Assembly: GCA_008632985.1 (NCBI GenBank)
Contig: QPGO01000017.1
Span: 62,001-126,000, forward strand
Direction of reading: 5' to 3'
Length of the DNA: 64,000 bases
Source: Psammoneis japonica
Lineage: Eukaryota
Part shown: piece by piece, positions 1 to 26,593 of the stretch
Position numbering within the stretch: the first letter of the stretch is position 1
How the letters are laid out: each line of letters opens with the position of its first letter
The notes under the pieces: generated by a model
Database searches by the model: none
What the model was told of the DNA's origin: nothing
What the model saw: only the letters and a program-made list of their open reading frames with translations
Position numbers and translations under genes: made by a program

Positions 1-729
1 AGTTACTTCGAGCCACACTATACCGGTAGTTTTCTGTCAAACGAAAAAACGATGAACTTACCGGTACGTCTTGAAGCGATTGAGACTCAGATCTCCAATC
101 AGTCTCCTCTGAAGAGGATTCCATCATGTTGAAAGTAAACGTACTAGCCCGATCTTCTCTCAATCAACGCAAAACAAAACAGTACGGTAGCGGGCAGCGG
201 CAATTCCTTCACTTCTCATTGTAGCCTTTGGCAATCAAGGAAATGGAATATTATTTGTCGGCCAGCAAATAGATACCCATTAAAATAACATATAAAAATA
301 TATTTGTATTCATGCATTGATTGACATAACCATATTATTTTATTAATAAATTAATATTTTATATACATATTTTAAACGAGCAACATGATATTTTCTGTTG
401 CAATAAATTCATAGATATCCATGTACAAGACAAAACATAAAAAGATATCGATCCCCCCACCACCACCCCAAAGAAGGAAGAATAGAAGGACCCTCTCCCG
501 GCTTGGGAGAAGGACTTGAGGACCCAAAAGGTGGTGGAAAGCCCCAAAGGGTATTCATACAGTACTCTAGTAGGGCCCTACTGTAGAGTTTCTCTCCATT
601 TCGGTATTCCTAGGCCCCCTACCGGTAGTACTCGCACCAACCATGAACCTTGAGGAGGAGGTGACACTTCTAGGTAACCATACGGTATATTGGATTGACT
701 TGTAATTCAGGCTGGTGATAATTTTGCTC

Positions 730-1929: not shown

Positions 1930-2503
1930 TCTGTTGTAAGTAACGATAACCTTTGATAGCTTGCTGAGATGAAGGTACGGTGGTGTTGCCAGTGGGCGTC
2001 CATTGTGGATCGTGATGAAATAACAACGCAACGCGAGACTGCACTACTGCGAGCCGAAGAAATTCAAATTTGCGCGATGATGACTGCGCTGGTATCAAAC
2101 TTCCGTATGTAGGATTTATACTGGAACTTACGTAACCGTCTGAACTTGAACGGCGCGCCGTTGACCGCGCGAAGGCGACAGCAATGCTGCGGCGGGCGCA
2201 ACAATCAAAAATGGCGGTGAGTGCCTCTCATCTCTCATCACAATCGCACCTACCCAGCGCCACCAACCATCACAATTGCACGTTGACCTCTTGCTACTAT
2301 CATCAGTCAGACTCGCCCTGTCAGTAGGCCTGCAGATTGAAAATAACCTTTCGCGATCAAACGGAGTGTGGTTCTTATCGCGTCGCGGGAGGATACATAC
2401 GGTTGATCATTTTTTGTAAGCGTGTCCGTGCCCGTTGAAAGCAACAACGTCCAGCATACAGCATACGGTCCTTCGACTCGTCACTCAGCAGAGCGCAGCA
2501 CCA

Positions 2504-5500
2504 ATGGAGTCCATACACGATGCATCTGGATCGCAAATGGAGCTCCAGCAGCTTTTTGACGAGATTGTGATGCTGATCAGAGAAACTCCGGTTACGCCCG
2601 AATTACATACCTCAGACGATGAAAGACTGCGCATGTACGGGCTGTATAAACACATCACCTCTGGTCCTTGCGATGGAAAAGACCCACCGTCAATATTCAA
2701 TGTTGTGGCGCGAGCCAAGTACAACGCGTGGGCTCAATGTCGAGGTCAGACAGAACAACAGGCGCAGCTCGCATACGTCGAGTTGGCCGCTTCGCACGAC
2801 AACTGGTTGAGTCACAAGTGCCGCGACATGTTGAATCAATTCAAGGAAAAGCGCTCGACACCAACAACAGAGAGTTGTGACACTTTGAAAGCTCCTGCAC
2901 AAATGCCTGCCTCTGCACGGGCAGTCTCATCTATTGCGCAGGATAAACAAAGCCACTCGCGTGTGGCCGGTTTCTTGGAAAAGCACCTGGGCATTACACC
3001 GCTTATTCCCCGGGGGCAGCTGGATATTTCATATCTAGACTTGGCCTTTGCGGCAGCTCAGTGTCTTCGTCCCGGAGCATCGTCGCTGCATCGATACGCC
3101 CAGTTGGAACGCAAAGTTGCGCAACGTTGGCTCAAGCATTCGCGACAACGTAGGAACGCGACCGATGGGGAAGAGTCAGTTCTTGTTGGGTTATCGGTGA
3201 GGTCCCTCCTAGACTTGTACGTAACTTCGAGGGCATATCCACCAGACTCTGAGATGGTGGTTGTCCCGCCGATAAACATTCCGGGGATGATGGATGTACT
3301 CATATTTCACAACCTCAAGATCGTTGCCGTCGACATCCCGTCATCGCCAGAGGGGTCGATGGACATTCGCGTCGATGTAGATGCGGTGGCAAACGCAATC
3401 ACTGACAAGACGGTAGCGGTAATGGTGGTGCATCCCTTTGGAACTATTTGGACAACACAAGACGATATGCAACGACTACGAGAACTAGCGCAAGTTCGAA
3501 ACTTTGACATTATTGAAGATTGCGCTGAATGTTACACTGGTCTTGAGCCTGACGCATACCTTGGTTCTCCGTGTGCCGACGTGTCACTTTTTTCCTTTGG
3601 AACAATCAAAACAGCTACAGCGTTAGGAGGCGGTGTAGCAGTGCTTCGAAGAAACGAAGGAGCGCTTTGCGGTCAACTGACAAGGATACAGAACACACTT
3701 TATCGACAACAGACGACTTCTGAGTATCTCTGGAAAGTTGTTTTGTTCATGATAGCGAAGTTCGTGTCGGACCATCCTATGCTTTACGGTGTCATTGCCC
3801 AGTGCTGTCATTGTTTTGGAATCAACTTCGACCGCTTGGTGGTTTCTGTGACTAGAGCCTTCGTTGGGCATGCATCGGGTCTTTCAGAGAAAAGAGATCC
3901 GCACCGCGTCAATGACATTCGTCGTTGCAATCTCATGATGCAAATACGGAGGAGGCCGTCCGTTCCATTGCTTTCTCTTCTCAATCGGCGTCTCAGCCAG
4001 CATGAAACGACTGCTAATGCCGTGCGTCTGCGAATTGCAAGATGTCGACAAATGTCGGAGCTCCTACAGGACGCGTCGTCTCATGTCGCCACGCTCAGAG
4101 AGCAGCAGTGCGGGGCTCAAAATTTGTACTGGCTATACCCAATAAAAGTGATGGACCCAGAGAAGGTGTGTCGTTTTCTAAGGGGAAATGGATTCGATGT
4201 GACTCGGGGCACCTCTCAGCTGGGCTGCGTTTCTTCACGCGTCGGTGATTGCCCTAACACAGACCAATTGTTCGGCGGCATCCTTTACCTACCGGTCGCA
4301 AGTCGATTGTCTTCGATCAACGAGATGAAAAGAATAGCTAGTCTATTGCACTTCGGAACTCAGGGCAGTGTTTCAAAGACTGTTAGTGAAGCTTCGCTTG
4401 CAGCAGGTGGTGGAACGAAAGCGGCCTTGCCAATGACAAGATTGATTGGCTTCAAGTCCTTCATCCTGATAGTACTAGTTTTTTGGGATGCTTATTCCTT
4501 CCGTTGCCGCTTTCTTCGCTTGGCGCTACTCACCTCGTTTGCAGTCCTTCCGGCGGTTGCATTCGCATTGAGGCTCTGCATCGCAAATTTCTACATTGAA
4601 TCATCGAAGGCTTTTGCAAAATATAATTTCATGCTCCAGACGAAAGGAGGGGTGCAAGAAAGTCCGCCAACGAGATCGCATCTGGAAAATGGACACAATC
4701 AGTCACGACTCTTGTCCTGCATGCCTGCACTGAGCGTTCCTCAGGTATCGCTTCCAATCCAAAATGATACGACACCAGAAGAGTTTCTCCAGGATCGCCG
4801 TGTGTTTCTAACTGGAGCAACAGGGTTCCTTGGATCTTTGCTGCTTCGTGACATCTTGCTCAACCGAGGTCGTCTAGCGATACCAGCCGGAGTCGTTGTT
4901 CTGTGCCGCTCAAAACACAAGAAGAGCGCTGCCACCAGGGTGTCGGAATTACTCGACGACCCGATGTTCTCATTCTTATCTTCCGATGAAAAGGCAGCTC
5001 TTGTAGTTGTTGTCGAGGGTGACGTGGCGTTGCCCAACCTTGGAATGTCTTCGGACGACATGAGTCTCGTATGCAACGAAATGAACATATCTCACGTTTT
5101 CCATTGTGCAGCTTCCGTAAGCTTTACGCAGAGCCTTCACGATGCTGCAATAACAAATATCTCATCCTCTTTGAAGCTTCAATCTCTGACAAAGAAATTG
5201 AAGAACGTAAGTGCAAAATATGTGTACATCAGCACCGCCTTCGTTCATGGCGCCACAACAGGAACATCTTCGCAGCCTTTGTCCGAAGAGTTGTATCCGC
5301 TTCACCCTTATGATCCTGTCGAGCTCTACCAGTCGATGATGGAAACTGAGTCCTATGCGAGCACTGCGATGCATTCTCTTGGTTTCCCTAACACTTACAC
5401 TTTCAGTAAGTGCGTCTGTGAGCACCTTCTCCTACGGAACCGTGGCGTAAACACGATAATTATCAGACCAAGTATTATCGGACCCGCTGTCCAAGAACCG

Positions 5501-8500
5501 CACGAAGGCTGGGCAGGGAGTAAACCATCTACGATTGTTGCTGCAGCATGCCTGTACTTGAGCTATCAATGGAATTTGTGGTCGTTTGGGAAACAGCGTG
5601 TTCCCTTTATCCCTGTTGATGTCGTCAGTAGATTCGTCTTGTCGGAAGCTTTTTGCGACGGTAATTCTGAAAACGGCGACAGAAAAGCCGTCGACTCCAA
5701 TCCAAATTCGTCGTCACTCTCTTCGGATGATGAGTTCGAAAGAATAAGTAATTGGAGCGGGTCGTCGTTCGGTTCTGAAAGTGTTAGACCGGCTGGCGGT
5801 ATTGCGACCGAAAACGAAGGATACGAGGCCAGCACTATCCACAATGCTGCATTCGACTCGTCTTCTCCTAATTCCGCTTCCTTTTGCTGGATCGATTACG
5901 CCGTCGCGGTTACACACGTAGGTTCCGTCAATGGGTATTTCCAGCGCACAACAGCGTATGTTGGATTATTTTTCACTGTAAAGTTGGTGCCTTATATGGA
6001 GATGAGCATTGAAACATACGAGAGAATACATTACCTATTTGTTTCGCTTCCAGTAGCGACGATTCTGGCTTTTTTCAGATGGATGCGTTGGACTCCCAAG
6101 GTGATACAACGTCTGTCGAAATTGAGCGTCGTCCTGGACCTTCCTCTATTGTTCTTTCCGTTCATGAACAAGACTTTCGCTTTTCAGTCGGATTTAGCGC
6201 TTCCCGATAACTTCAGTGGGGAGAGGTATATGTTTACCTGTGTAGCAGCTGCGGAGCGCTTCATCTCACGAATGCGTTCAAGCGAAGCACCAAGAAAAGG
6301 CAGATTTCACGGGTCAATGCGAGACTCTGTCGCCGTTGTTGGGGGGCAGTCGCAATCGCCGCCGCCGTCGGATCTGTGGTGGGCATGTACTCAACCTCGA
6401 GGCAACTGTGTAATCCGAATTGCAGCCTGGTGTTTTATCAAGATCCTTCGAATGGTTGCTGACGAGGTGACAGTCGATGTAGCTTCTTTCTGTCGTTTAG
6501 CTCAAGCATTCCATGATATAAAGAAAGAGTCTAACGGAGAAACGGCAGATGGTCTCCATATTATCCTCGCGCCCACCCATCGGTCTTTTTTCGATTTCCT
6601 TCTCATAAGCTACGTTTTATTCTCGCTACCAGAGCTAGGCATAGTTTTGCCTTATATCGCTGCCTCTGAAGAATTTGGTCGACTTCCAATACTGGGACTC
6701 TTCGCTCGTTTTGCTGGAGCATTCTTTCTCAAACGTGGTGTTGGTAGTGCTGACCCGTCTCTACAGGTAAAAATAACTTCGCTGAAAGCCAGAGAGGTCA
6801 GTAAGGGCACGGCATGCTTCGAGGTGTTCATCGAAGGACAAAGAAGTAGAGATCGCAGGTTTGTCTCGCCGAAAACAGGATTCTTGCGGTAAGTGTCGTG
6901 GAATGCCCTTTTAAAATGTGGGTTCTATCGCCATTTGATCTCAGCAACGGGCCTATGTCTTGGCTACCTTAGGTGCCTCACAGATACCGGTGGCAATCAT
7001 TTGGTCGTTCCGATCACTATCAACTATGAGCGAATCCCGGAGCAAAGCTCATTGGTGCTCGAAGCTCAAGAAGGAAAACGGCTTACACTGAGCAACCTGA
7101 AGTTGATTCATTGGCTAAAGGTGAGACAGGAACCGTTTGCCAAAGTCAGAACGCTTCTGAGCTTACGCTAGTTGTTCCGATTTCTCTTGTTCCGCTGTCT
7201 AAAAGCGAGTTGCTTCCAACGAGGTCAATCTTGGTCGAATCCACGTTGTCGCCTCACCACCTATCCAGATGAATGCTTCAACAACTTCCAAGGTGACTAA
7301 GGTAGCCCATGAGATTCAGACCCGGCAGAAAGACAAAGTGTACATTTCCGACTTTCACATTAGGGCTGCCTCGATTGTCCTCGATTTGAACTTTGAAAGA
7401 GTTCGTAGAGCCTTGGTTGCAATCGGCTGCAACTTATGGCCTGGAAGCCTCTCGTACACTTTACGTGATGATGATCCCACCGGTATGCTAGAAGAATCGG
7501 TGCTCTGGACGGCAGCTCTTCAGTTTGGACATCATTTGGCGCCTCTTTTTTTGACTTCACACCCGTCTTGGTGTCGATGGCTAAGTCCAAGTCCTGTCGA
7601 GCCCGTTCAACCTAAGGACTATCGAGACAATCTTGATGTATGTGCTGTCAAACACTCACTTTCCACGATGTTCGACAAAGCCGATGCCGCAGTGGACTCC
7701 GCTTTACAGCTGTTAACATCAAAAGGGTTCGCTAACCCCACAGGTACCCACCTTTTTCAGTTCGCATGTTACCAAAACTCCGAAGTACCTTCAATTTTTC
7801 TAAGATCAGCGGCGTGTATGAGGGTGTCATCAGAATCAGACGCCGGTCCATTGCTTGAGGAGGCGTCGCTTTCACGTCTTTCGGAGCAGAATAGTGTGGC
7901 GCATCATCCACATTTGAATTTGAAAGATTTGGAGGCTCTTGGCTCGTGGGGTTTCAAAGATTCGTGTTTCGTTCTAAGTACCTCCCGAGACGGTTCAAGA
8001 AGTGTGACAATGAATGGAGAGAGGTATGATATATGTGGCAAAAGGCTCTCGAATCTCATACCGTTCATTGAACGTGAGACGAAGGTGCCTATTGTCAATA
8101 TGAAAACTGCGCTTCCTTTGACGGTGGCCGAGCCTCCGAATACCTCCTGCGACCTTTCTGCTGAAGATCTGGATGCATTAGAAGAGGCGGTATCGCGGGT
8201 TTCTGTTCATGCATTAGATCGAGCGCGAAATGGCTTTGGTCATTCTCAAGCCGATATATTCTGTCTTCGGAGTGGTTCCTTTTTTCACATGAGGATTCCT
8301 GATGCTGTTGCTTGGCCTTCTTGCGAAAGCGAAGTTATGCGCCTTGCAGAGCTGGCCGTGGACAAGAACTGGTGCCTGATCCCTTGTGGTGGCGGTACAA
8401 ATGTGTCAAACGCCACCCGATGCCCATGCAAAGAAGTCGAACCCCGGCCAATCATTTCTCTCGATATGAAACTAATGAATAAAGTCCTCTGGATAAACGA

Positions 8501-9692
8501 AGAGGACTGCTTGGCTCATGTGGAAGGAGGAATAGTCGGGCGTGACTTAGTTCGAGAACTCGAGAAGCGTGGCTACACGATTGGACACGAACCTGACAGT
8601 ATTGAATTTAGTACGCTCGGTGGTTGGATTGCAACAAAGGCCAGCGGTATGAAGCGAAACAAGTATGGGAATATCGAGGATATTGTGAAAGCTGTGCGCG
8701 TTGCTGGATCAAAAGGAATTCTTTGGCAAGACTCAGGATCTGAACACGGTGCCTTCGGCAGAGAGTCCAGAGGAATTGATCTATGCTCCCTTATCATTGG
8801 ATCTGAGGGATGCTTTGGCGTCGTAACGAGTGCCGTCGTAAGAATCTGGCCGCTCTCAGACTGTCGGCAGTTCGAGAGCGTCATCCTTCCGGACCTAGAA
8901 CATGGCTTGCGATTCGTTAGAGACATCGCAAAGCTTGGACAATCCATGCCTGCTAGTGTCCGACTGTTAGACAACGATCACTTTCGGTTGGGCCAGGCGC
9001 TTGTTGATGACAGCTCTATTCTCAAAACAGTCATGCAAAACATATCACGAATGGCCATGCGAGTAGCCACAAGTTTTTCCTCAGATTCCGTTGTTTGTGC
9101 GACCATCGCGTATGAAGGGAGCAAGTGTGAAGTCTCGCAGCAACGGCAAGCAGTAAAACGCTTATGTACCTTGAACGGAGGGGTACTTGCGGGATCAAGA
9201 ACCGGCCGAGCTGGATATGAGCTGACGTTTGTCATTGCATACTTGCGTGATTTTGCGCTGACTCACTACCTTCTCTCCGAGTCATTCGAAACGTTTGCTC
9301 CATGGTCAAAGTTGGAGGTCATAATCTCTGCGACGAAACGACGCATCAGGGACGAGCACAAGAAGCGTTGTCTTCCTGGATCTCCGTTTATTGGTTGTCG
9401 AGTGACTCAACTGTACCATGAAGGAGCTTGCTTGTATTTCTACTTCTGTATGAACTATGAGAATGTGAAGAATCCTAGCAGCGTTTTTGCTGAGATCGAG
9501 CATTGCGCACGAAATGAAATACTGGAAAGGGGCGGCTCGCTCAGTCACCATCACGGCATTGGGAAGCTTCGTGCACCTTTTCTCTCCGAGATGGATTCCA
9601 GTCCTCTCCAAGACTTACGCCAGTCTTTGAAGGAGACTGTTGACCCTAAGAACATTTTTGGGGCAGGAAATGGTCCTTATTTTCAAGGGTAG
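2504..9692 (+). CDS. Five-domain fusion: acyl-CoA-binding domain / DegT-DnrJ-EryC1-StrS PLP enzyme / fatty acyl-CoA reductase / DHAP(glycerol-3-P) acyltransferase / alkyl-DHAP synthase; join(2504..6888,6973..7120,7206..9692), 2339 aa
   Basis: ACBP: LRMYGLYKHITSGPC...ARAKYNAW. PLP domain: VVHPFG, IIEDCAE, SFGTIKTATALGGG. FAR: VFLTGATGFLG, FHCAASVSF, YISTAFV, NTYTFSK, IIRPSII. Acyltransferase: PTHRSFFD, GAFFLKR, FIEGQRSR, VVPITINYERIPE, LGRIHV. AGPS: IPCGGGTNVS, GHEPDSIEFSTLGGWIATKASGMKRNKYGNIED, GSEG, GGSLSHHHGIGK. Introns 6889-6972 (GTAAGT..TTAG) and 7121-7205 (GTGAGA..AAAG) join three ORFs in frame; total 7020 nt. Confidence 0.88.
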
Positions 9693-9920: not shown

Positions 9921-11236
9921 ACTTCTGTGTCGAGGACGGCCTCTGCTAGCTCCTAATGTAGAGATGGGTTCTGTAACCTGCCTGCTGTTCTTTAGAGTGC
10001 AGTCTACTGGGACCGTACATTACTTGCTACAAAAAATTAGAAAAAACCATGTGGTGCCGGGCGGAGAGTGCGTAAATTTCTAGAGCAGTGTGGACATGCG
10101 AGCAGAGCAGCACAGCCAGGTCCCTGGCAAGGATTTGGTCCCTCTGTTGGAGACATCTTGTGTCCCTGGCAGAGCTCACCAACCCGCAATGAGTTGCAGG
10201 GGGTCTCGGTGTCACTCCAACTCCCATCTTCAACAATGGACGGTGCCTTGCAGATGAAAAACTGCTGGATGTGTCTCCATTTCAAACAACAAGAACAACA
10301 CATTGATGAAACCCCCACTTCCAGTCAGAAAAGAAAAGGATGGTGCTTTTGATGATGACAAAGATTGCCTTTCTGAATTCTGTGATTTGGCAAGTTGGTC
10401 ACAGCACATGCATCTGGTCAGACAGTGAAGAAATTCTTCCCTTGACCACTTCCCAACAACAGCACAAATCATGTGTTGAACTCTGTGATCCAGCAAGTTG
10501 GTCATGACCAACTGATTCTTTTCAGCTGGTTGCCTCACAATGGTGGATCTTGGCACATCAGGGTCACCTCTTTTCAAGCAGTGGAGTTCTTCAGCTGATC
10601 CATCAAGTTGCTGCAAATTGTCAAACCAGAAACCCCACTCAACCCCATTGCAAGTTGCTGTCCTGCTTGAGAGTGCAGCCAAACCCCCTTGCTTGAAAAT
10701 GTGACAATGCCAAATGTGAGCAGACTCTGCCACAGGGTGAATTTTGGCTGACTGCTGTTTGCTGTGTTTTGCAGGAAGAGCCCATGACCATTTTTGAGAG
10801 AGGAGCTGGCTGGTGGTGTGCACGGGGACTCGTGTGCCCAAATTTTCCACACTCAATTTGCAGCGCTGTCCTCCCCAAACCCGTGCACAGGAGAGGCAAG
10901 CAAGCACCCATCTTTCAGCAGACAGCTGTGCAGTCTGCAGCTGGAGAGCATTCTAAGGTCACCTTGGCTTCCCTTCTTGTGTGTGTTGGGAGCACACATC
11001 AGGTTTTGACCTGTCGATGATCCCCCTGCTGTGATGGTGGTGGTGGTGACTGGCTGGAGTGGCTGCAACTTCTGTGTCTCGAGGATGTCCAAACTGCGGC
11101 TGGCCCCACGCAGTCAGGGTGGGCTCTGCAACCTGCCACGCTGCTCTAGCTACTAGCTAGAGCAGAGCACCTCTAAGTTACTTTGAAGCCAGTGGCTCTG
11201 GGGCCCAGCAGGGGCACTGCATGTACTTGCTGTACA
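9921..11236. mobile_element. Degraded ~1.2 kb repeat/TE relic bounded by degenerate direct repeats
   Basis: No TpA between 10083 and 10953 and few CpG. The flanks 9921-10031 and 11068-11236 share blocks such as ACTTCTGTGT(CT)CGAGGA and TGGG(T/C)TCTG(T/C)AACCTGCC. No credible ORF. Confidence 0.55.
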
Positions 11237-11491
11237 GTGCGGTGGCGGGGCGCCTGCCACAAAAAGTCGCGCGAGCAGTTTTCTTTCGCGCGAATTCGAT
11301 TGAACGCGAAGGAAACGCGCAGAATCGCGCAGAAGCCGAATCTTTTCCGTTGTCCTACGCAAGGATTGTACTGGAAAAGTGTATGTGGAAATATACTACA
11401 TTTCTGTACTGGTATTGGACTTCAACAAAAAGAAGCGTCACATCATGTGTGGCTGGAAAAAGGTCACAAAATTGCTTCCACAGCAGTCACC

Positions 11492-12802
11492 ATGAAATAC
11501 GTTCTTGCCGTTGCTGCCGCTATCGGCACGTCTGTTGCCTCGGCCTTTGTGCCCACGGCACCACGGGTGGCGTTTGCGCCTGCCAAGACTACTACTGCAG
11601 TGCGCATGGCCGAAGAAATTTTCGATCAAGAAGCTTTCATCCAAGAATCCAAGGATATGCGCCTGAAACATTTGGAGGAACAAGCAATGTTCGCCCTCAA
11701 GATTGCTTGCGAGAACTACGGTAATGCCGTCTTTCCCAACGCGATGATCGCTGGAGACTGTGTGATCACCCACCTTTTGCACCGAATGGGATACCTTAAG
11801 GACGGAAAGTGCAAGGTCATGGTTGTCGACACTTTTCACCTCTTCCCCGAGACGATGGAGTTTCTGAAGGAAATCGAAGATGCCTACGATTTCAAAGCTG
11901 AGGTATTTTGCGCTGAGGGCGTGCCGATTGGTGACAGGGACGCCTTTGATGCCAAATACGGAGCAAACCTTTGGAAGGAGGATATCGACGAGTACGACCG
12001 CGTCTGCAAGGTCGAGCCGTTCCAACGCGGGCTCAAGACGCTCGAAACCGACTGCATGATCAATGGACGAACCAGGTGGCAAGGCATTGAACGTGCATGG
12101 ATTGATATGTTTGAGAACGCGCCAATCGGGGGTGGGCTTGCTAAGTGCAATCCAATTGCATACTGGACGCTCGAAGATACTTTTGATTACATTGCCAAGT
12201 ACAATGTTCCTCACCACCCGCTTCACGCCAAGGGATACCCATCCATTGGAGACGCTAAGGACACGATTCCCATCCCTGAAGATGGCTCTGTTCGCTTTGT
12301 TGACTTCAAATTTGAAGGAGACAAGACAGCTTGGCTCGACTATGCTCAGGAACGAAAGGGGCGCTTTGTTGGCCTCGTCAATAAGGACGGATCAACCAAG
12401 TCTGAGTGCGGTATCCACGTTGCTGGTGCCGAAAAAACATGGGACCGGGATCTCTGGGAGGATGGCAGTGCTGTCAAGAAGGTTGAAACCAAAGAAGATG
12501 CTCTTGCCATTAAAACCTCTGGCAAGCCGTCCGTAATGGTTGTGTACGCTCCTTGGTGCCAATACTCGCAGGCCATGGAAGAAGAGTTTGAGAAGTTCGC
12601 CGCATCGACTGATCTCGATGTGTACAGCTTCCGTGGAGACGAAGTGCGCGACTTTGTCACCGCTGAGCTAAATACAAACTCCTTCCCGACTGTGAACGTC
12701 ATCAAGCCTGATGGATCTGCTGTCAAGTACGAATCGGAAGACCGCACGGTTGCTGACTTCAAAGCCTTTGCTGATGAAACTCTTGGTGCAGCTGTAGAGT
12801 AA
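11492..12802 (+). CDS. APR: Plastid-targeted APS reductase of the APR-B (Fe-S-less, PAPS-reductase-like) type with C-terminal thioredoxin-like domain, 436 aa
   Basis: Signal peptide plus ASA-FVP cleavage motif (MKYVLAVAAAIGTSVASAFVP). PAPS/APS reductase motifs VDTFHLFPET, KVEPFQRGL, NPIAYWT, HPLHAKGYPSIG, KSECGIH. YDRVCKVEP stands where Fe-S-binding enzymes have a CC pair. The Trx-like tail contains YAPWCQYS. Confidence 0.9.
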   Translation: MKYVLAVAAAIGTSVASAFVPTAPRVAFAPAKTTTAVRMAEEIFDQEAFIQESKDMRLKHLEEQAMFALKIACENYGNAVFPNAMIAGDCVITHLLHRMGYLKDGKCKVMVVDTFHLFPETMEFLKEIEDAYDFKAEVFCAEGVPIGDRDAFDAKYGANLWKEDIDEYDRVCKVEPFQRGLKTLETDCMINGRTRWQGIERAWIDMFENAPIGGGLAKCNPIAYWTLEDTFDYIAKYNVPHHPLHAKGYPSIGDAKDTIPIPEDGSVRFVDFKFEGDKTAWLDYAQERKGRFVGLVNKDGSTKSECGIHVAGAEKTWDRDLWEDGSAVKKVETKEDALAIKTSGKPSVMVVYAPWCQYSQAMEEEFEKFAASTDLDVYSFRGDEVRDFVTAELNTNSFPTVNVIKPDGSAVKYESEDRTVADFKAFADETLGAAVE

Positions 12803-12867: not shown

Positions 12868-14679
12868 CTACTTTACAATTTCTTTCAAATAGGTTCGCAT
12901 TGTTATTATCCCCATTTCGATTTCTTCTTGGACAGAGAAGCCGCATGTTTTGTACAATTCGTTTGCAGCGGTAAGCATTGCAGGAGTTGAAGCCACCAAT
13001 TTGTAGCTTGCATCTTTTTTTGCAACCACTGTCGCAAAACGAACAGCGGCTAGCAGAAGATTCTTTCCAATGCCCCGCCCACGGCGACTCGGGTCTACTG
13101 CAAGTCTGTGTAATTCAAAGGAATTCTTTCCAAAGCCTCTCACATCTGATTCTTTTGTTTTTTCGAACGGACGAACACCAACGCATCCCACCACAGAAGA
13201 TTGCTCCATTGCCACAATGAAAATTCCTCCCCAGCTACAGTACCTACATCCGATAGTCGATGAATCATCACCTACGACATCGACAAGAGCCGCTTCTCTT
13301 CGAACGCTAAGATCTGTCTTGAGAGCTGTTTTGACCATTTTCTTGACAGGAGGGTATGCTTCACCCAATTCTTCGTAGGTCTGTTGAAACAGAGCGCGAA
13401 CTTGGTCTTGGTGTGCAGCTTGAATAGGTCGCAAGGTTATGCCGCTCTCTGTCTCAAATGAAACCGCGTTTTGTTTCGCCAATGGTTGGGACCACGGACA
13501 CATTTTCAATTGAAATGTAAGTGTCGAACCGCTGGAAAAGGCATGGGCAACTACATAACTCTGGAGATGCAACGCTAATGCGGCGTGCTCATCAAACAGC
13601 TCCGGAGGCGACAACATTGTACAGGCATTGGCTGCGGCCGTTCCTGCCAAACAAGCATGGCAAGAACCGAACCCTTGAGCCCGCAGGCGTTTCTCCACGT
13701 GGGCGCAATTTGTACCCAATGTATGGTAAACATCTGTATCATCCTGTGCGCTTGGCTTGGCATTGCCGCGCTCCAACGTAGAAACGAACAGTGAGGTGTA
13801 CGTTTGATTGTAACCCTCCGCCACAGAAACACTTTGTGAATCGCGCGTTGCTTCTGATCCCAAGGGTTCGTACGCAACCAAGACACTGTTAGGCTCAATA
13901 CACAGTCTTGTGGAGCAATACTGAAGCAAGGCATCCGAATTGTCTTTTCCGAGATATGCCAAAACAAGTTCTGTCAGCACCAAGGTTGGTCGCGACTTGT
14001 GGATTTTGGAAGCCAAGCATTCCAAAGAAGGCAATTCTCGTAGATCAGCCGACAGCAAATGATAGTTTGGAATCGATAGAGAAGAAGAGTCGCGTGGCTT
14101 TTGCGAGTCACGGTCGACAATACCTTCTATGCGAATAGCATCTGGTTTGTCCGAGTCGGCTTGCACGATTCTCAGCAGTCCTGACGACGCAAGAGCATCT
14201 CGTTTGGCTAGACAAATCTCCAGACAATCCACTTCATAGACTGTTATGTTCTTACGCGCAAGTGAATGACACCACACGCCCAGAATGTCGAAACCACACC
14301 CCAACATGACAACTTGCGGTTCCTGGTGAAACGACAGAAATCGCTCGAGTGCGGCTGTGATGGATGCAATACGAGCGGCATACCCAGCATTAACTAGCGG
14401 TGTTTGTCGTTTCGAACTATTGGTCGTCAAGGAAGCGATTCGTTGTAGCGAGTTCTGATATTCTTGAAAACATGTTGCTACAGGTTTGTGTCCTGCACTA
14501 ATGGCGGAGCACTACGGTATGTCGATTGCGTGACGTTGCACAATAAAATCACATGGGAGACAAAAATAACTTGAAAATTCTTGCTCATTTCGTAGCAATT
14601 AACAATCGTCCTGATGACTCACCTTCGCCAATACTGCATCTGATGCTGTCCTTGTCACCGACGACTGGACACTGCTCAT
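12868..14679 (-). CDS. Leucine carboxyl methyltransferase (LCMT/PPM family) fused to a C-terminal GNAT acetyltransferase; join(14679..14623,14511..12868), 566 aa
   Basis: The spliced N-terminus VTRTASDAVLAK|CSAISAGH matches the LCMT start. Other LCMT motifs: TPLVNAGYAAR, QVVMLGCGFD, YHLLSADLR, PTLVLTELVLAYL, ELFDE. GNAT motifs: VVGCVGV, ELHRLAVDPSRRGRGIGKNLL, ANELYKTCGF. Intron 14512-14622 (GTGAGT..GTAG) is in frame. Confidence 0.85.
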
Positions 14680-17579: not shown

Positions 17580-19735
17580 GAAGTCCAGAAGAAGCAGAAA
17601 AGTGGATCATAATTTGGCGAGAGTGAGAAAAGTGAAGACTGTCAATTTTGGTTTTGTGTGCTGCTGATGAGGTGTCAGCGGCATCGGCATCTGGTTGTCC
17701 AACAACCATTGCTGAAACTGACACGGAGAACTTGCAAAAAAACTGCCGGAGCCAATGATGGCATTGACACGGCAGACAAGGTGTCTGGACATTGGTCATT
17801 TTTTGGACCATTGCAACAGAAGCTTCATCAGACCCTCATCAACACACAGTTGTGACCATCCATTCGGAGACGCACATTGTGATGCCACGCTGCATGCAGA
17901 CAATGCATCAACTGACCATTTTCCGGATTTTCAGCACCCACTGAGTTAAAGTCCAAGTTTGTAAAAAGGCAAGTAAATTGAAAATCAAAATGGTGCTGTC
18001 AATGTGTCGAAGGCTCTCACCAATTGTTGTCTCACTCAACTTTCTCTTGCCGTTGCAGCCACATCAGAGGCAGCAACACAGTGGTTTTCAATTTTCTGCG
18101 TGCAAATGTTGCCAATTGCAGCCAATTTTGTTGTGCCTTTAATTGTCATTTTCGCACATAAATTGAAACAACACACTCAACTTGTTAAATCCGTTTTATG
18201 CCGACATTTGTTGTCCATTTGTGTTTGATCATTCTTGACAATTTAATTTGATTTTCGCTTTCATTGGATTTTGTAAATTTCCATTTGATCTTAATGTTGC
18301 ATTTGCACTGAACCAACATCTTTGATTTTGGTTTTTAACATCTCCACATCATGCACACCCCACCGTGTTGACTGGCACATCCTCTGCTGTTCGGTGTGCT
18401 CCAGTCTCCCCCATGCACATTTCCAGTGTCATTTTTCCAGCACCTCCCGGAATTTCTGTGCATGTGTCTCTGCCCTGCTTCGGGCACTCATTCTACATGC
18501 GCAATCATCTGCGCAATTCATGACAGCACATCCTCTCCCCAAACTGCTTTCCACCTGAGCATGTGCTGTTGTCATCCACGCACCTTCTACACGAATCACA
18601 ACTGACCTCTTGCCATGGCGGTCAATGACTTTACCCCGTCTCACGACAAGGTCGACCCGATCCTTCCTTCCAATTTCCTGATGAATGTGATTTTGATGAC
18701 ATGGAATGTTTTGCCAATGGTTTTGGAATGGAGTTGTTTGGTCCCAAGCTCAAAAGCACAGCTTCAATGCGTGCATCCAAAAAGCAGTTTTTGGAATCAA
18801 CGAAATGGACTCCCTCTCCACAATTTCTCGCTCTTCCCTTCCTTTGCCACAAGCCAAAGTCACGTCGAATTCCACATGTCGCGGAAGTTGTCCGCGCCAA
18901 CAATGTCATCAGGAAAACTCTTGGATGCCCTGACGTTTGGTCTTGCATCAAGACTCGTGGTTGGTCCCTGAAGAAATCCCGCTCGCTGAAAGGTCAACAC
19001 TGCCTTCATTGTCGAAATTTGGACAAAGCTCTCTGTTTCTCCAAAACACCCAGAGAGACAGTTAAACAAGAAGAGCACCGTGTGAATCTTCACTGCAACA
19101 TCAAAGCCATGGTGGAATTTGTCCACACGATTGTTGCCAGTGACGACCCAAATGATCCCGTTTCCGGCAAGCCTTGTTTCTGGTTTCTAAAGGAAGACAA
19201 TCTCAAAAAAACTGATCAACGACCGTGCACAAGACCTTCACGGTGCATTTTTTGTCACCGAAATCGCAACGCGTCACGTTCAGCACAAACAAAATGACTT
19301 CGACTGCTGGTTCATGCAGATTTTTTGCCATGTCCAATCGCAAAAGGAGTGGCGCCTGTTCGTCAACAGCTTTCTTGTGCCATGCGATTCTAATGACCCG
19401 GGCTCTCAGGTGGGTGACATTGAGGAATGCCTCACTCCAGACCAAATCGGCAACACAAAGAACAAAGTGACAATGGCTGGTGATTCCCTTGCCCATCGGG
19501 AGGTGCACGAAGAAAAAACAAATTCCATGTTGAACCAAGAATTTGGGAAGCGCTGTCCCAAGGAACAACCCGGCACATGACCCAAGTGCAGCAAGTTGCT
19601 CACAATCCTTCGATGCAGAATGCGTGATCAGAGGGCTGACTGCATGGATGATGACAACAAACGAGAGCATCAATCCAAAACCAAACGCAAAATTGGGAGG
19701 ACCCGCAAAGACGGCACCTGTTTGTACGATGGTGC

Positions 19736-22700
19736 ATGCCCCCCCCCCCTCCTTGTTGCCGCATGTTTCTTGTGCATCCGTCTTCTCACATGTCCACATT
19801 TTATCCTGTTGTTCACATTCGCCGCGTAAGAGCCTTCCTTGACCGTCCCCAACAAGAAGCCAAAGACTGCATCACGCTCTGCCAAGGCACATCCTCCTGC
19901 GTCTGCCGACCTGCCGTCGTCACAGGAGGCAAACCGCACTCTCACCGCCGACCTTCCCACTCTGTCGGAAACCATGGATTCCCACAAACCTTCCTCTTCA
20001 CTGGAAGGTCCTCCCGCCCAGCTGCCAGCACCACGAAAGGCCCGGTTGCGTCGTCTCCCCCACTGGACCCCAATGACATGTCGTGGTTGGACAAGTCTAC
20101 ACTCCGACAGCGCTTTGACCCGCCCAAGTGTCGATCTGTTACCTCAGACGAAGTTGCTGCTCATGTGTCACGCCTTCACATCATTGACAAGGCAACTGAC
20201 ATGGAGCATGTGCTTCACCATTCCGCTGCCAACTTTTACCTTGCCGACAACCTCAGGGAAAACTGGCACATCTTCTCAAACAAAACCCCCATCAGCGACC
20301 CAACTGCCGCATCTCGTGTGAGAGCCGAGTGTCCTCCTGACCTCGATCACTGCTCAGACGAACTCTCTGTTGCCCGTCATGCAAACTCTCTTTACAAAGG
20401 GCACTTTGGTTGCCTTCGTGTGTGCATTCCTGCCCTTTTGCTTTTCATTTTGTTGAAGGGAGAGTCAGATCTCAAACGTGATGGATCGCTGGCAGTTGAC
20501 AAGGAAGACAGACAAAGGATCAAGATTGGCTGTGCTGGTCGGTCACATCATCCGAAGGAGCCTGGCTCTACAAAATCAGCCAAACCCAAGGCCACACACG
20601 GTCTTCATGTTTTTGATCCTGATGAAAACTTCGACGCGAAAGAGTCTTCCAAAATCAAGGCCATGGTCGCTGACATTCTTGACTCGATTCAGCTTTGCGA
20701 AAACGGCGTCGAGCTTTGGAAGCTTTGCAACCCCCCACCGTTCAACTGGTCGCTTTGGTGCGAAGAGCACTCCAAAACATTTTGTGATGAAATGGGTTGT
20801 CTACATTTCCGTCGTGAGGACGTCACCCTGCAGGGATTGTGCATGTCCCGTGGTCAATTTTGTGAAGGACACCGTGACGTAAAAAACTGCACCTGGCTTC
20901 GACATCGGAAAACAGCCGCTGGTTGTTTCTTTGTCATGGATGCCTTTGGCGATGCATGGTCCTTCAAGGCAGTCACCAACAGCAGAAGCCCCATTGGTCA
21001 ATGCTGCGACGACAAGTGCGACATGAACCCGATGTTGACTCGGATGCACCACAACCGAGCTCAGCTGGACTTTGCACTTAAAGACATGGATCTCCAACAT
21101 GATGGTCCCACCCATCCTGACTCTGTCCCAACCGCACGTGCATTCAAAAAACTCTCGCTGGATGACAGCCGGCCATGGAGCAATGTTGTCATCAGCGGAG
21201 GCGGTGTCATGGGAATTCCCCATGTGCACATGGATCGGCTTGAGTTCCCAACATTCCCTGTGAGGGACTTTCACCTGTCTGCCCCAAGCACAGTTCTGTT
21301 CCATTTCAAGAACATCATGTGCAGATCGGGGCCAGATCCGAAGCGAGTGATGCGGTTGGCCATTCATGCTGGTCATCTGACAGGGCATCACCAATTCTAC
21401 CATGTCGGTGACAAGTGCCTGCCTGAGCCATGTTGCCGAGGCATCGACCCATTTCTACAATTTGCCGATTGCTTGATGAGTGAGTTTGGCGTTTTGTTTG
21501 GTGATCCACAGGCAGGCAGGATTGGGCCAACCAATTTGACCTGCGACAAGTTTGCTGAGGTTTTCATTGACGACAGGCACATTGGCACCGCCAATGACCT
21601 GGTCAACCTGATGGTCAATGAAATCTGTGCAGTGCTGCTTTGGCTCAACGACAATGTCACCACCAATGAGTTCTGTTCCAATTAAATGGAACAACGCTGC
21701 AAGGCTGCCTGCGATGTTTGGGCACACAGGGGAGCAGATTTTAGCGAGATTTGTCTCATGTCAGTGCTGCATCGTCTCGCTCTGTCCGGTGTTGTGGTGA
21801 AGGACCACCCGCGTCTGAACGACATGGTGCATCCTGTGTTCAATTCTGGAGCGGCCGCTCAACTGGCCCACATTAACCCAGACGAACGACCGCTCATTCA
21901 CCAACGTATGTCATCAGAGACCGGGACCGAGGAGCACGGTTGGAACGGTGCAGAGCACAAACTCTGTGAGAACTCAGACAATCGCTGCACGTGCACATTC
22001 GATTGTGTGTTCCATGGTCCATGTTCCGGACAAGATCTCTTCACATTTTCTCCAACAGGCAAGCGATTGCGCAAACCCTGTGGATCAGTGGATTGTCAAA
22101 TTGTGGAGTGCGTTGACTCAGACCCTCACCTTTATGACCAAAAAGATGCGACGGTTCACGGTGGAATTGCGGCTGACCTTGGCGATGAATCCTTGTTGGG
22201 TGATGGAGTGGCTGCTGACAATGAATTAAACTCATTGTCCGGATCATCCGACCAGGATGAATCCTTGACGGAAGAATCCTCCGATGACGAAGACAGCGCG
22301 GGATTAATTTCTTGCGCATCGGACAACAACGAATCATTGGCACTGGACGGAGTTGTGGCAGACAACGAGCTTGGCTCCTTGCATGATGAGTCCTCCGACG
22401 ACGAAGAATGTGCGGGATCATTTTCTGGCGCATCGGACAAGAACGAATCATTGACTCTGGATGGAGTTGTGGCAGACAACGAACTCAGCTCCTCTGACGA
22501 CAAAGACAGTGTTTTGGAATGCGGCCCACCTGTCATTGCTCTCGAGGATGAGGAGAGTTTGGTCGACACCACCGACGACCGTGCAAATCCACCAGACCTT
22601 TCACAAAATCCCACTGTGGACGTGGACGAATGCATGGCGGCAACTTTGGCGCAAGTCTCACACCTTCTCCTGTGAGACTTGAGTGTGAATTGCTGTTGTG

Positions 22701-25417: not shown

Positions 25418-26593
25418 GCAAATTGGAAATGTAGGACGACCAGGACTGTGGCATTGACTTGGCATTGATTGAGCGTCGATTGATGAAAAATGTTAAAAAG
25501 CTGTGGCGATGCGTCTTGGTTGATTGCAAAGAGTTGGCCAAATTCATTGTGTTCATCCCTTTAAATTGCAAAACTGTTGTGTGATGCGAAAATTGACAAT
25601 GATGTTGATTGTCAGCTGTTGCACTGAACGAAGGCACATGCTGAACGGGAAAAGAGGGGGACGTTTGCACAGTCAAGGTTTGTTCTCATGGACAAAAAGA
25701 TGTCTCTGTGGTCAAAAAAAATTAACTGTCACAGATTAAATTTTTTTACCAGCTGCACAGCTAATGAGGTTTGAAACTGTTAAAATTTTGTCTGTTGAAG
25801 AGACAAAAATCACAACGAAAAGACAAAGCAAGATCACTGTGTTGCGCCCTCTGATGCAACTCTTGTTGTCTTTCCTGGCATGAGCACATCGACGAATCCA
25901 ACGCAGTCATCACATCGTCAAACCCATTTGATCAATGGCATTGACCAGATGAATGTTTTTGAAGACTTTGACAAAGCAACTGCAGCGCATTCAGCCAACA
26001 AGTGTTCTTTCTGAATGGGAGAGAGTCGGGTGGATGATGAGAGTGAAAATGAAGGATGTGAAGTTGGTGCACAGTTCAAGAAAAAAGCAGTCAAACAATG
26101 TGGACAAAACACTCTGATGCTGTCATCATAGAATGACAAAGAACAGTGAATGGAGCTCCTCCCTGGCTGCTTGCACATGCTCCAGCTGGGACGGAAAGCT
26201 GTGTTTGTCACTTTTTCAATTTTTTCTTTTTTGGATTGACAAAGTGCGGATTTTTGCTCTTATTCGCATCTAAATGTCTTCCGTTTGAGCAGAAATTCAT
26301 TGCTTCTGCGAAAACGAAGGAAACGAAAGGGAAATCAGGTTACATTGAATCAATCCCGAATCATCGAGTCCCGCATACTGTAGTGTCCAGACAGTCAGTC
26401 AGACAGTTATTCCCTGCCTCCATTCCTTGCTGGCCACGACACACCCAAAGCGAAACTTCTGCTCGCCAAAATCACAGCCAGAAAGAAGCGAGGTGAAAGC
26501 ATCCGAAGATCGCGTAGTGCTCCACATCACGGCAAATACCGGTACGTAGACGACTACCGCAACAAATACTGTAGCATCAAAGCAGCAACAACC

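Follow-up and report, generated by a model that had tools for sequence, protein, structure and literature searches.

In animals, the ether-lipid enzymes GNPAT and AGPS work in the peroxisome interior and FAR on the cytosolic side of the organelle, according to the portion of PMC13012113 available to us. The same portion describes FARAT, a bifunctional FAR-GNPAT protein of Tetrahymena thermophila, Amoebozoa, Discoba, Filasterea and some fungi. Its occurrence in Tetrahymena and Amoebozoa bears out a statement made in a preliminary description of the DNA studied here, namely that FAR-acyltransferase fusions are known. In Bradyrhizobium elkanii, RtxA's N-terminal domain is a DHAP aminotransferase that forms serinol phosphate (available part of PMC3222319). 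Here we describe a gene of the diatom Psammoneis japonica whose predicted product carries, from N- to C-terminus, an ACBP domain, a DegT-type PLP domain, a putative hydrophobic hairpin, FAR, a GNPAT/PlsB-type acyltransferase and AGPS, with every catalytic motif that was checked intact. We found no paper that describes this five-domain fusion.

The gene lies in a 64,000-nucleotide stretch of contig QPGO01000017.1 (assembly GCA_008632985.1, positions 62,001 to 126,000), hereafter called the window. An ORF scan of the window revealed stop-free frames of 1,490 codons (2420-6892) and 829 codons (7203-9692) on the plus strand. The gene's earliest ATG is found at 2504, downstream of an in-frame stop at 2417-2419. 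When both introns are removed, the three exons (Table 1) form a single CDS of 7,020 nt and 2,339 codons that ends in GPYFQG, in agreement with the ~2,340-residue spliced frame of six elements proposed in the preliminary description; its two introns are canonical and its domains were matched. If intron 1 is retained, a TAA at 6890-6892 stops the frame upstream of acyltransferase motif IV, and its removal regains colinearity with homologues across the junction KTGFLR/CLTDTGGNHLVVPITINYE. Retention of intron 2 causes a frameshift, and homologues run gap-free across the second junction, WLK/RVASNEVNLGRIHVV. Splicing of the P. japonica gene is thus predicted from homology and canonical splice sites. 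Aligned to nine diatom homologues, the spliced model is colinear over ~2,200 positions at 42-45% identity; window-specific insertions reach 8 aa at most, there is one deletion of 9 aa, and both lie in the hairpin. The ORF lengths and domain E-values far exceed chance level. The gene is a diatom nuclear gene with three exons. In a tree of AGPS sequences it groups with Seminavis, Fistulifera, Amphora, Nitzschia and Cylindrotheca in a clade of 13 rows (SH-aLRT 99), which contains the pennate diatoms.

Table 1. Features of the fusion gene (positions in the window)
Feature	Position	Strand	Details
Exon 1	2504..6888	+	ATG to 5' splice site; donor GTAAGT at 6889; colinear with diatom homologues; ACBP, DegT-like domain, hydrophobic hairpin, FAR, acyltransferase motifs I-III
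Intron 1	6889..6972	+	84 nt, GTAAGT...TAG, canonical ends
Exon 2	6973..7120	+	148 nt; encodes acyltransferase motif IV
Intron 2	7121..7205	+	85 nt, GTGAGA...AAG, canonical ends
Exon 3	7206..9692	+	To stop codon; 240-aa conserved region, then AGPS
ACBP domain	2549..2785	+	Pfam PF00887, E=3e-19, P0001 residues 44-122
DegT-type fold-type-I PLP domain	2972..4414	+	~470 aa; Pfam PF01041 (DegT_DnrJ_EryC1), 9e-15
Two adjacent hydrophobic segments (putative membrane hairpin)	4427..4597	+	Model residues ~642-665 and ~671-698
FAR domain (NAD_binding_4, 'male sterility' type)	4808..5635	+	Pfam PF07993, 3.9e-46, profile 1-257 of 258
GPAT/GNPAT/PlsB-type acyltransferase	6554..7120	+	Split by intron 1; Pfam PF01553, 7.5e-14, match ends at exon end
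Exon 3 conserved region	7206..7928	+	~240 aa; kept in homologue consensus
AGPS domain	7929..9668	+	AGPS-specific N-terminal part, FAD_binding_4, FAD-oxidase_C

The architecture is conserved. Domain families were counted from the listed annotations of 91 homologues (1,452-4,145 aa). In this survey, which the preliminary description had proposed as a check, FAR, acyltransferase and FAD_binding_4 occur together in 89/91, DegT occurs in 68/91 and all five families in 54/91. Named homologues are mostly from diatoms, with others from Triparma, brown algae and one green alga. The gene is no singular find: it represents a family conserved in diatoms as well as other ochrophytes. Top matches in an exhaustive HMMER search were fused forms of 1,387-2,727 aa, and proteins of stand-alone size (~600 aa) that match just the AGPS core start near E=1e-141. 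Homologues of the fusion are already present in public protein sets, where they have been named AGPS automatically. Three full-length homologues (P0021, P0046, labelled 'type:complete', and P0071) are MMETSP transcriptome ORFs that span the whole fusion, and for this reason the fusion is very likely real as one protein. The earlier proposal that three committed ether-lipid steps share one polypeptide is likewise upheld, as the model is colinear with over 50 homologues that have all five domains, including three from transcriptomes.

The locus could also give two separate proteins, ACBP-DegT-FAR-acyltransferase and AGPS, if transcripts retained an intron or were polyadenylated near 6892 and an internal promoter served a start near 7269, but we regard this as very improbable. 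Many database entries of ~800 aa match the exon-3 part only, as such an arrangement would predict, and the available part of Dataset S5 of a 2026 survey (PMC13012113) holds Phaeodactylum AGPS only as a stand-alone 554-aa model; the latter entry is a fragment. The short entries, however, derive mostly from metagenomes and other assembly-derived sets (JGI, ENA, Logan) and cover stretches the size of an exon, which is why we interpret them as exon-sized gene calls. A protein ending at 6892 would also lose acyltransferase motif IV, and a start at 7269 would leave ~220 non-AGPS residues ahead of AGPS. Finally, relatives have full-length transcriptome ORFs, and removal of the two introns restores the frame exactly.

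Motif conservation was judged on 15 aligned homologues, using only the rows that cover each column. The motifs previously noted as intact (TGxTGFLG, YxxxK, HxxxxD and HHHGIG) are all present and conserved in the covering rows. The ACBP domain matches positions 2-75 of the 76-position PF00887 profile and also matches ACBPs in the PDB (best 1.2e-9). FAR contains TGATGFLG and YTFSK, both conserved in the covering rows, and matches a fatty acyl-CoA reductase in the PDB (7eoz, 2.5e-10). The C-terminal 'Sterile' domain PF03015 was not detected in P0001 at E<=0.01 or in 5636-6553 at E<=1. A weak PF03015 match was seen in the bacterial FAR of locus L060. FAR lies upstream of the GNPAT-type domain in one stop-free frame (P0001 residues 797-1072 and 1379-1489), which is the FARAT layout. 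In the acyltransferase, motif I (HRSFFD, His codon 6578-6580) and motif III (EGQRSRD) are encoded by exon 1 and motif IV (VPITINYE) by exon 2, and the motif set is complete only after splicing. The conserved region that follows in exon 3 had no Pfam match and no PDB sequence match.

The C-terminal domain is an AGPS, with Pfam matches to FAD_binding_4 (2.5e-30) and FAD-oxidase_C (4.6e-31). In a phmmer search of the PDB, it matched guinea-pig AGPS (4bby) at E=9e-137 over 580 C-terminal residues (query 243-822, chain 90-655) and the Dictyostelium enzyme (2uuu) at 7.7e-73; the next family, D-lactate dehydrogenase, reached only 6e-20. The HHH loop (SLSHHHGIG), a Tyr (GACLYFYF) and an Arg (PASVRLLDN) align with the guinea-pig residues. 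The Arg is present in 15/15 homologue rows, and the HHH loop and Tyr are conserved in the rows other than two truncated sequences. We take the roles of the HHH loop, catalytic Tyr and substrate Arg to be those in the guinea-pig and Dictyostelium AGPS structures.

The acyltransferase sequence itself does not separate the domain from a G3P acyltransferase. Its best PDB relatives are GPATs (9vuq, 4e-11; 8e4y, 1e-5), its match to NCBIfam PlsB (1.7e-18) is well under that model's cut-off, and the one DHAPAT-specific lead is a weak Atlas score (0.75) to a 'DHAP acyltransferase-like' cluster. The GPAT and PlsB matches would suit a protein that uses glycerol-3-phosphate and is mainly a GPAT/wax-type lipid enzyme, with the AGPS-like domain serving another flavoenzyme function. 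We consider this quite improbable: the AGPS domain is far closer to true AGPS than to D-lactate dehydrogenase, it retains the N-terminal part specific to AGPS along with the Arg, Tyr and HHH positions, and a FAR-acyltransferase fusion beside AGPS is a known ether-lipid signature (available portion of PMC13012113). The fusion to FAR and AGPS also points to DHAP as the acceptor, which we infer in place of G3P.

Hydrophobic segments were identified by Kyte-Doolittle hydropathy (19-residue window, mean >=1.6), and the hairpin between the PLP domain and FAR is a prediction from hydropathy only. Among the 66 homologues that have both flanking motifs, 54 show a similar hydrophobic stretch, 36 aa or longer. 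The fusion protein has no signal peptide, with ACBP beginning ~15 residues past the first Met. As stated in the preliminary description, it has no C-terminal PTS1, ending in FQG; a canonical PTS1 was found in 0/80 homologues with a complete C-terminus, one of which ends in ANI (relaxed pattern). The hairpin would place both halves of the protein on the same side of the membrane. Since signal peptide and PTS1 are absent and the hairpin would keep the halves together, all domains are probably at the cytosolic face of a membrane, and not in the peroxisomal matrix as are animal GNPAT and AGPS.

Taken together, we think it likely that this one chain carries out a five-step ether-lipid mechanism at that face. 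Long-chain acyl-CoA would be captured by the N-terminal ACBP, and one acyl-CoA would be reduced to a fatty alcohol by FAR. A second acyl chain would be placed onto DHAP by the acyltransferase, after which the FAD-dependent AGPS domain would exchange the acyl group of acyl-DHAP for the fatty alcohol, giving 1-O-alkyl-DHAP. The PLP domain would then work on a carbonyl of the pathway.

The classical pathway includes no role for the PLP domain, which the preliminary description left unexplained, and therefore the true product may differ from that expected of the three other catalytic domains. The putative PLP Lys (codon 3608-3610) lies in the motif SFGTIKTATALGG, and the Asp lies within IEDCAEC. 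Only profile positions 65-189 of 360 are matched by PF01041, as is also the case in the scanned members of a bacterial DegT subfamily, to which the domain belongs. An AlphaFold2 model (pLDDT 87.9, pTM 0.90) had as its top Foldseek matches the sugar aminotransferases WecE, PseC, ArnB and perosamine synthase (E ~1e-14, TM by target 0.70-0.78). K213 and D183 do not vary across 51 eukaryotic sequences or 28 bacterial relatives, and the motif FSFGxIKTxTALGGG around the Lys is strictly conserved from bacteria to diatoms. The domain is missing in some fused homologues, namely those of Pycnococcus and Seminavis paralogues B and C, and the core function can therefore do without it.

Fold-type-I enzymes are obligate dimers, and AGPS is dimeric in crystal structures. 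The PLP fold could therefore be a dimerisation or regulatory scaffold, or a sensor, attached to a protein that makes ordinary alkyl-DHAP. The match of PF01041 to the N-terminal half only, and the paralogues and green-algal form that lack the domain, would fit such a role. We nevertheless judge it unlikely: the strict conservation of Lys, Asp and surrounding motif would be unusual for a dead scaffold, and free-standing bacterial members of the subfamily (~400 aa) resemble complete enzymes.

Gene neighbourhoods of the bacterial subfamily were compared at 80 loci. In 9/80 the DegT gene is fused or adjacent to a VAO-type (PF01565) flavoenzyme: fused in L029 and L071, upstream on the same strand in L002, L010 and L034, and divergent in L067. 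The partner is a true AGPS at 3/80 loci (L060, L062 and L037). In L062 (Opitutaceae), FAR, acyltransferase, AGPS and DegT are consecutive on the same strand; in L060, acyltransferase, AGPS and DegT have overlapping gene ends and FAR is convergent; and in L037, AGPS and DegT lie at a contig end. No SDR ketoreductase was found among the ORFs scanned in L062 and L060, and GNAT genes occur near the L062 and L037 clusters. Fusions of DegT to a PF01553 acyltransferase were found in P0438, P0446 and P0449, and the two are adjacent in L009. The DegT sequences of eukaryotes do not form a sister group to those of Verrucomicrobiota, so the AGPS-DegT link is present in two separate lineages. We found no description of the verrucomicrobial clusters in print. 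Given this bacterial ancestry and the genomic link to AGPS and other flavoenzymes, the product of the fusion protein may not be a classical ether lipid.

This kinship and context suggest, rather than prove, that the keto group of alkyl-DHAP is aminated. In such a scheme, the PLP domain would transaminate the C2 keto group of 1-O-alkyl-DHAP (or of acyl-DHAP or DHAP) and replace the acyl/alkyl-DHAP ketoreductase, yielding a 2-amino ether backbone (O-alkyl-serinol phosphate) that is later N-acylated, in place of classical alkyl-glycerolipids. The invariant Lys and Asp, the fused or neighbouring flavoenzymes and acyltransferases, the apparent lack of an SDR in two clusters, the nearby GNAT genes and the double occurrence of the AGPS-DegT link all speak for it, and RtxA provides a precedent for transamination of the DHAP keto group (PMC3222319, available part). 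Against it, most of the 80 bacterial loci have unrelated neighbours without lipid genes; the operon evidence comes from three loci, as the subfamily was found in only 1/301 sampled Verrucomicrobiota genomes; the domain is absent from the homologues named above; and its substrate cannot be read from sequence. To our knowledge, no 2-amino ether lipid of the O-alkyl-serinol type is known from diatoms, and our literature search found none; nor did it find a report of 1-O-alkyl lipids in diatoms. We hold transamination to be possible but unlikely. That diatoms and a few Verrucomicrobiota carrying these four genes aminate the C2 keto group of alkyl-DHAP through a DegT-type domain instead of reducing alkyl-DHAP is, as a general claim, unlikely. 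If true, the five-domain protein would be a self-contained factory for 1-O-alkyl-2-amino-2-deoxyglycerol-3-phosphate at the cytosolic membrane face. Its backbone would be a so far undescribed ether-linked, sphingoid-like 'alkyl-serinol', and a new lipid class would be present in a main group of ocean primary producers.

Among known systems, FARAT resembles the diatom protein in that FAR is N-terminal to a GNPAT-type acyltransferase (PF07993 and PF01553) in one chain. FARAT works with AGPS in making ether lipids, whereas in the diatom protein AGPS is fused, and ACBP, the PLP domain and the hydrophobic hairpin are additionally present upstream (2,339 aa, compared with 1,140 aa in FARAT of Tetrahymena). 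The activities of FARAT are reported to be peroxisomal, and the diatom family lacks PTS1 (comparisons with the available portion of PMC13012113). Animal FAR1, GNPAT and AGPS comprise the same three catalytic domains but are encoded by three genes; the diatom fusion is one chain without PTS1, with a predicted internal-hairpin membrane anchor. In Myxococcus xanthus, the same enzyme set lies side by side in an operon of AGPS, a FAR-GNPAT fusion (MXAN_1675) and an NAD-dependent reductase (same portion of PMC13012113). That operon, as given there, includes a ketoreductase gene and no PLP enzyme, in contrast to the one fused protein of the diatom. In the verrucomicrobial loci L062, L060 and L037, the same four predicted catalytic modules are found as in the diatom protein, and their DegT belongs to the same subfamily, with the motif FSFGPIKTATALGGG. 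However, theirs are separate genes without ACBP, and the eukaryotic DegT proteins have closer relatives than theirs. WecE, PseC, ArnB and perosamine synthase share the fold and the PLP Lys and Asp with the diatom domain, although identity is only 12-17% and its C-terminal half has no PF01041 match; DegT/DnrJ/EryC1/StrS enzymes occur with nucleotide-sugar genes, whereas the diatom domain occurs among lipid enzymes. RtxA, as described in the available part of PMC3222319, performs PLP-dependent amination at the keto group of the DHAP skeleton, as would the proposed diatom step, but it belongs to another aminotransferase family and acts on a non-lipid substrate, and thus offers a mechanistic analogy only.

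Two long stop-free frames on the forward strand flank a short coding piece and are joined to it through two introns (see the table). The first ATG of the upstream frame lies at 2504, behind an in-frame stop at 2417-2419. When 2504-6888, 6973-7120 and 7206-9692 are joined, they give 7,020 nt and 2,339 codons, ending in GPYFQG and a stop. The predicted chain carries ACBP, a DegT-type PLP domain, a hydrophobic hairpin, fatty acyl-CoA reductase (FAR), a GNPAT/PlsB-type acyltransferase and alkyl-DHAP synthase (AGPS). Retention of intron 1 ends the frame at a TAA (6890-6892), and retention of intron 2 shifts it. In an alignment with homologues, acyltransferase motif IV (VVPITINYE) is encoded by exon 2, so that a polypeptide stopping at 6892 would have a crippled acyltransferase.

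The AGPS part matched guinea-pig AGPS (4bby) at E=9e-137 across 580 residues and Dictyostelium AGPS at 7.7e-73, with the next family, D-lactate dehydrogenase, at 6e-20. For the acyltransferase part, the closest solved structures are GPATs (9vuq, 4e-11; 8e4y, 1e-5) and the NCBIfam match is PlsB, far under its cut-off; for its assignment as GNPAT or GPAT, the Atlas gives a weak lead. The stretch at 5636-6553 between domains had no Pfam match at E<=1, nor did that at 7206-7928, which also had no PDB sequence match at E<=10. The catalytic motifs that the preliminary description had called intact were all found, together with motifs III and IV of the acyltransferase, the Arg and Tyr positions of AGPS, and the Lys and Asp of the PLP domain. 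In an alignment with 15 homologues they are conserved in every row covering those columns. The observation of one spliced frame with these elements and motifs is therefore confirmed in full.

Features of the fusion gene, of its surroundings in the window and of bacterial DegT loci (L handles)
Feature	Position	Strand	Details
Stop-free frame 1	2420-6892	+	1,490 codons
Stop-free frame 2	7203-9692	+	829 codons
Exon 2 coding piece	6973-7120	+	148 nt, between the two long frames
Intron 1	6889-6972	+	84 nt, GTAAGT...TAG, canonical ends
Intron 2	7121-7205	+	85 nt, GTGAGA...AAG, canonical ends
ACBP			Pfam 3e-19
DegT_DnrJ_EryC1			Pfam 9e-15, profile positions 65-189 of 360 only
NAD_binding_4 (FAR type)			Pfam 3.9e-46, whole profile
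Acyltransferase PF01553			Pfam 7.5e-14, match cut off at exon end
FAD_binding_4			Pfam 2.5e-30
FAD-oxidase_C			Pfam 4.6e-31
Two hydrophobic segments	model residues ~642-665 and ~671-698		Between PLP domain and FAR
MinC C-terminal domain protein	730-2043	-
Plant-type APS/PAPS reductase with thioredoxin domain	11177-12802	+
Leucine carboxyl methyltransferase-GNAT fusion	12868-14511	-
VWA+UIM (Rpn10-like) protein	26384-27820	+
DegT-VAO-type FAD_binding_4 fusion	L029:9947-12577, L071:6515-9229		876-904 aa, two Acidobacteriota
Flavoenzyme directly upstream of DegT, same strand	L002, L010, L034		Three Planctomycetota
Flavoenzyme divergent to DegT	L067		Mucilaginibacter
True AGPS directly upstream of DegT	L060, L062, L037		All three Verrucomicrobiota loci, E ~1e-100 to diatom AGPS profile

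Nine diatom homologues align colinearly with the spliced model (42-45% identity over ~2,200 aligned positions), and no insertion of more than 8 residues is specific to the window relative to these nine. The domain-architecture search proposed in the preliminary description was run and found fused forms across diatoms and other algae. Restricted to proteins of 1,452-4,145 aa, the search gave 91 matches, with families counted from the match table: FAR, acyltransferase and FAD_binding_4 occur together in 89, DegT as well in 68, and all five families in 54. Named sources of the long homologues are Thalassiosira, Cyclotella, Stephanodiscus, Skeletonema, Chaetoceros, Nitzschia, Seminavis and Fistulifera; shorter fused forms come from Triparma, Ectocarpus, Phaeothamnion and the green alga Pycnococcus. 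Three full-length fusions (P0021, P0046, labelled 'type:complete', and P0071) are ORFs from MMETSP transcriptomes, and therefore one mRNA spans the whole fusion in relatives. An exhaustive HMMER search again returned fused forms as its top matches, with stand-alone-sized proteins (~600 aa) that match the AGPS core only starting near 1e-141. Many database entries of ~800 aa match exon 3 only; their sources are largely metagenome and other assembly-derived sets (JGI, ENA, Logan), and we read them as exon-sized gene calls, not stand-alone genes. Fusion proteins in public databases bear automatic names such as 'alkylglycerone-phosphate synthase'. Taken as sequence comparison, the evidence for a single polypeptide is strong, and the fusion is very probably real in Psammoneis japonica.

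A second fused form was seen in Seminavis robusta, paralogue B (P0077, 1,797 aa), with the order FAR-AT-AGPS-ACBP and no DegT domain. Its ACBP is C-terminal, so ACBP stands at either end of the enzyme among family members.

The closest database proteins are 54-57% identical (65% for one partial piece), and none reaches 90%. The window sequence is not that of Phaeodactylum tricornutum, whose AGPS starts differently (Dataset S5 of PMC13012113). When a tree was built from the AGPS part, with 33 rows, the window sequence fell inside diatoms; there it shares a clade of 13 rows (SH-aLRT 99) with Seminavis, Fistulifera, Amphora, Nitzschia and Cylindrotheca and stands next to three further sequences. 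Gene clustering around the fusion in the window was rejected, the neighbouring MinC, APS reductase-thioredoxin and leucine carboxyl methyltransferase-GNAT genes being unrelated. Elsewhere in the window, a run of long ORFs with N-terminal DUF7467 domains occupies 29572-37362 (-) within 28321-42074. Three of its ORFs, at 29572-32784, 32785-35301 and 35302-37362 (-), are contiguous in one frame with single stops between them; they could be paralogues in tandem, or else a single long frame interrupted by in-frame stops. The ORFs 19655-21685 and 21686-22675 (+) are likewise contiguous in the same frame with one stop between, both without a Pfam match, and a 976-codon ORF at 49203-52133 (+) with a weak integrase-core (rve) match is probably a retroelement remnant.

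Animal GNPAT works inside the peroxisome, and the activities of FARAT, the FAR-GNPAT fusion, are reported to be peroxisomal (PMC13012113). In the diatom fusion, ACBP starts ~15 residues past the protein start, too few to accommodate a signal or transit peptide. The chain ends in FQG and thus lacks a C-terminal PTS1, as had been claimed; among 80 fused homologues whose C-terminus is complete, none has a canonical PTS1, and one ends in ANI, which fits a relaxed pattern. Diatoms reportedly have a single matrix-targeting signal, a finding attributed to Gonzalez et al. in 2011. Of the 66 homologues that carry both flanking motifs, 54 have a hydrophobic stretch (36 residues or more) between PLP domain and FAR. 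As a hairpin brings the two halves of a protein to the same side of the membrane, we infer, as the parsimonious arrangement, that all fusion domains would sit on the cytosolic face of a membrane, be it the ER, the peroxisome surface or a lipid droplet.

In textbook biochemistry, ether-lipid synthesis is peroxisomal and is carried out by separate enzymes. To our knowledge, the only fusion described so far is the two-enzyme FARAT. That fusion is established, and a 2026 pan-eukaryote survey found AGPS, GNPAT and FAR to be patchy across SAR except in ciliates (PMC13012113). The words diatom and stramenopile are absent from the main text of that survey, and Thalassiosira and Fistulifera are absent from its AGPS dataset, as far as 12 of its 15 supplementary files extend. 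The same dataset (Dataset S5) gives Phaeodactylum tricornutum AGPS as a 554-aa protein; this model begins within the AGPS N-terminal region, which points to a truncated version of the same fusion gene. Searches of full-text literature found no description of a FAR-AT-AGPS fusion, no report of diatom alkyl lipids and no DegT enzyme in ether-lipid clusters.

For the FAR, acyltransferase and AGPS domains, the classical ether-lipid reading is the best-supported: ACBP would supply acyl-CoA, FAR would produce the fatty alcohol, the acyltransferase would form acyl-DHAP and AGPS would form alkyl-DHAP, with the PLP domain contributing an additional step. A conserved single chain that unites the three committed enzymes would lend itself well to testing whether substrates are channelled between FAR, GNPAT and AGPS. 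It adds a substrate-capturing ACBP, carries no matrix-targeting signal and would shift the pathway away from the peroxisomal matrix. Its existence would further imply unnoticed alkyl lipids in diatoms, which are major marine producers with heavily studied lipidomes. The fusion gene is conserved and ecologically widespread, and one of its modules, the PLP domain, is truly unexplained.

The AlphaFold2 model of the PLP domain (2972-4414; 50 homologues) is confident (pLDDT 87.9, pTM 0.90). Foldseek matched it best to sugar aminotransferases, namely WecE, PseC, ArnB and perosamine synthase (E ~1e-14, TM by target 0.70-0.78, identity 12-17%). Across 51 eukaryotic sequences of the domain, neither the Schiff-base Lys nor the Asp varies. 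A search limited to proteins of similar length gave 526 relatives. Among the 120 listed, three are fragments of eukaryotic fusions and most others are free-standing proteins of ~400 aa, ~28-34% identical over ~76-98% of the domain; those named are bacterial (Planctomycetota, Chloroflexota, Cyanobacteria and others), and three metagenome proteins (P0438, P0446 and P0449) are fusions with a PF01553 acyltransferase in either domain order. The motif FSFGPIKTATALGGG is common to the bacterial relatives and the diatom domain, and in the scanned bacterial members the PF01041 match is confined to the first half, as in the diatom domain.

Bacterial gene context was examined in species-representative genomes, where 600 pattern matches gave 568 confirmed DegT-subfamily loci and the best 80 were kept; all their ORFs were screened with local profiles and phmmer, and 75 chosen neighbour ORFs were compared with Pfam. 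In most of the best 80 the neighbours are unrelated, and in nine a VAO-type flavoenzyme (PF01565) is fused or adjacent. At L062 (Opitutaceae), FAR, acyltransferase, AGPS and DegT genes are consecutive on the same strand; at L060, acyltransferase, AGPS and DegT have overlapping ends and FAR is convergent. These genes lie in a larger lipid cluster (L062:4000-16200, L037:1-7700, L060:2000-7000) that also holds FAAL-ACP (AMP-binding+PP-binding), ketoacyl synthase, GNAT and myo-inositol-1-phosphate synthase genes. When Verrucomicrobiota genomes were sampled (E<=1e-60, only 6 candidates scored per genome), the subfamily appeared in one of 301, the query's own genome; it is rare in this phylum, and thus the operon evidence rests on three loci. 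Horizontal transfer of the PLP domain from AGPS-linked Verrucomicrobiota is unsupported: in a PLP-domain tree of 85 rows, built without L007 and eight loci that lacked a clean ORF, all but one of the 14 eukaryotic rows group together in a clade of their own (SH-aLRT 92) that is not sister to the verrucomicrobial trio, the remaining row (P0090) being placed elsewhere on a long branch. The AGPS-DegT association therefore occurs in two separate lineages.

The most interesting candidate for the additional step, tentative and rather unlikely in our estimation, is a PLP-domain reaction that aminates alkyl-DHAP (alternatively acyl-DHAP or DHAP) at the C2 keto group. It is suggested because the recurrent partner of bacterial DegT is a flavoenzyme, not FAR, and because DegT occupies the position expected for a ketoreductase gene; RtxA is a chemical precedent for DHAP amination (PMC3222319). 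The corresponding lipid was not found in print, however, and some fused homologues (Pycnococcus, Seminavis paralogue B) do without the PLP domain. We know of no amino-ether lipid of the predicted type. The domain's independent link to AGPS in bacterial operons offers a concrete, testable lead to a possibly new lipid of this kind. In Myxococcus, an operon pairs AGPS and FARAT with a reductase (PMC13012113), whereas the scanned ORFs of the three verrucomicrobial clusters showed no SDR-type ketoreductase, and the gene sets of L062 and L060 correspond exactly to the diatom protein's four catalytic modules.
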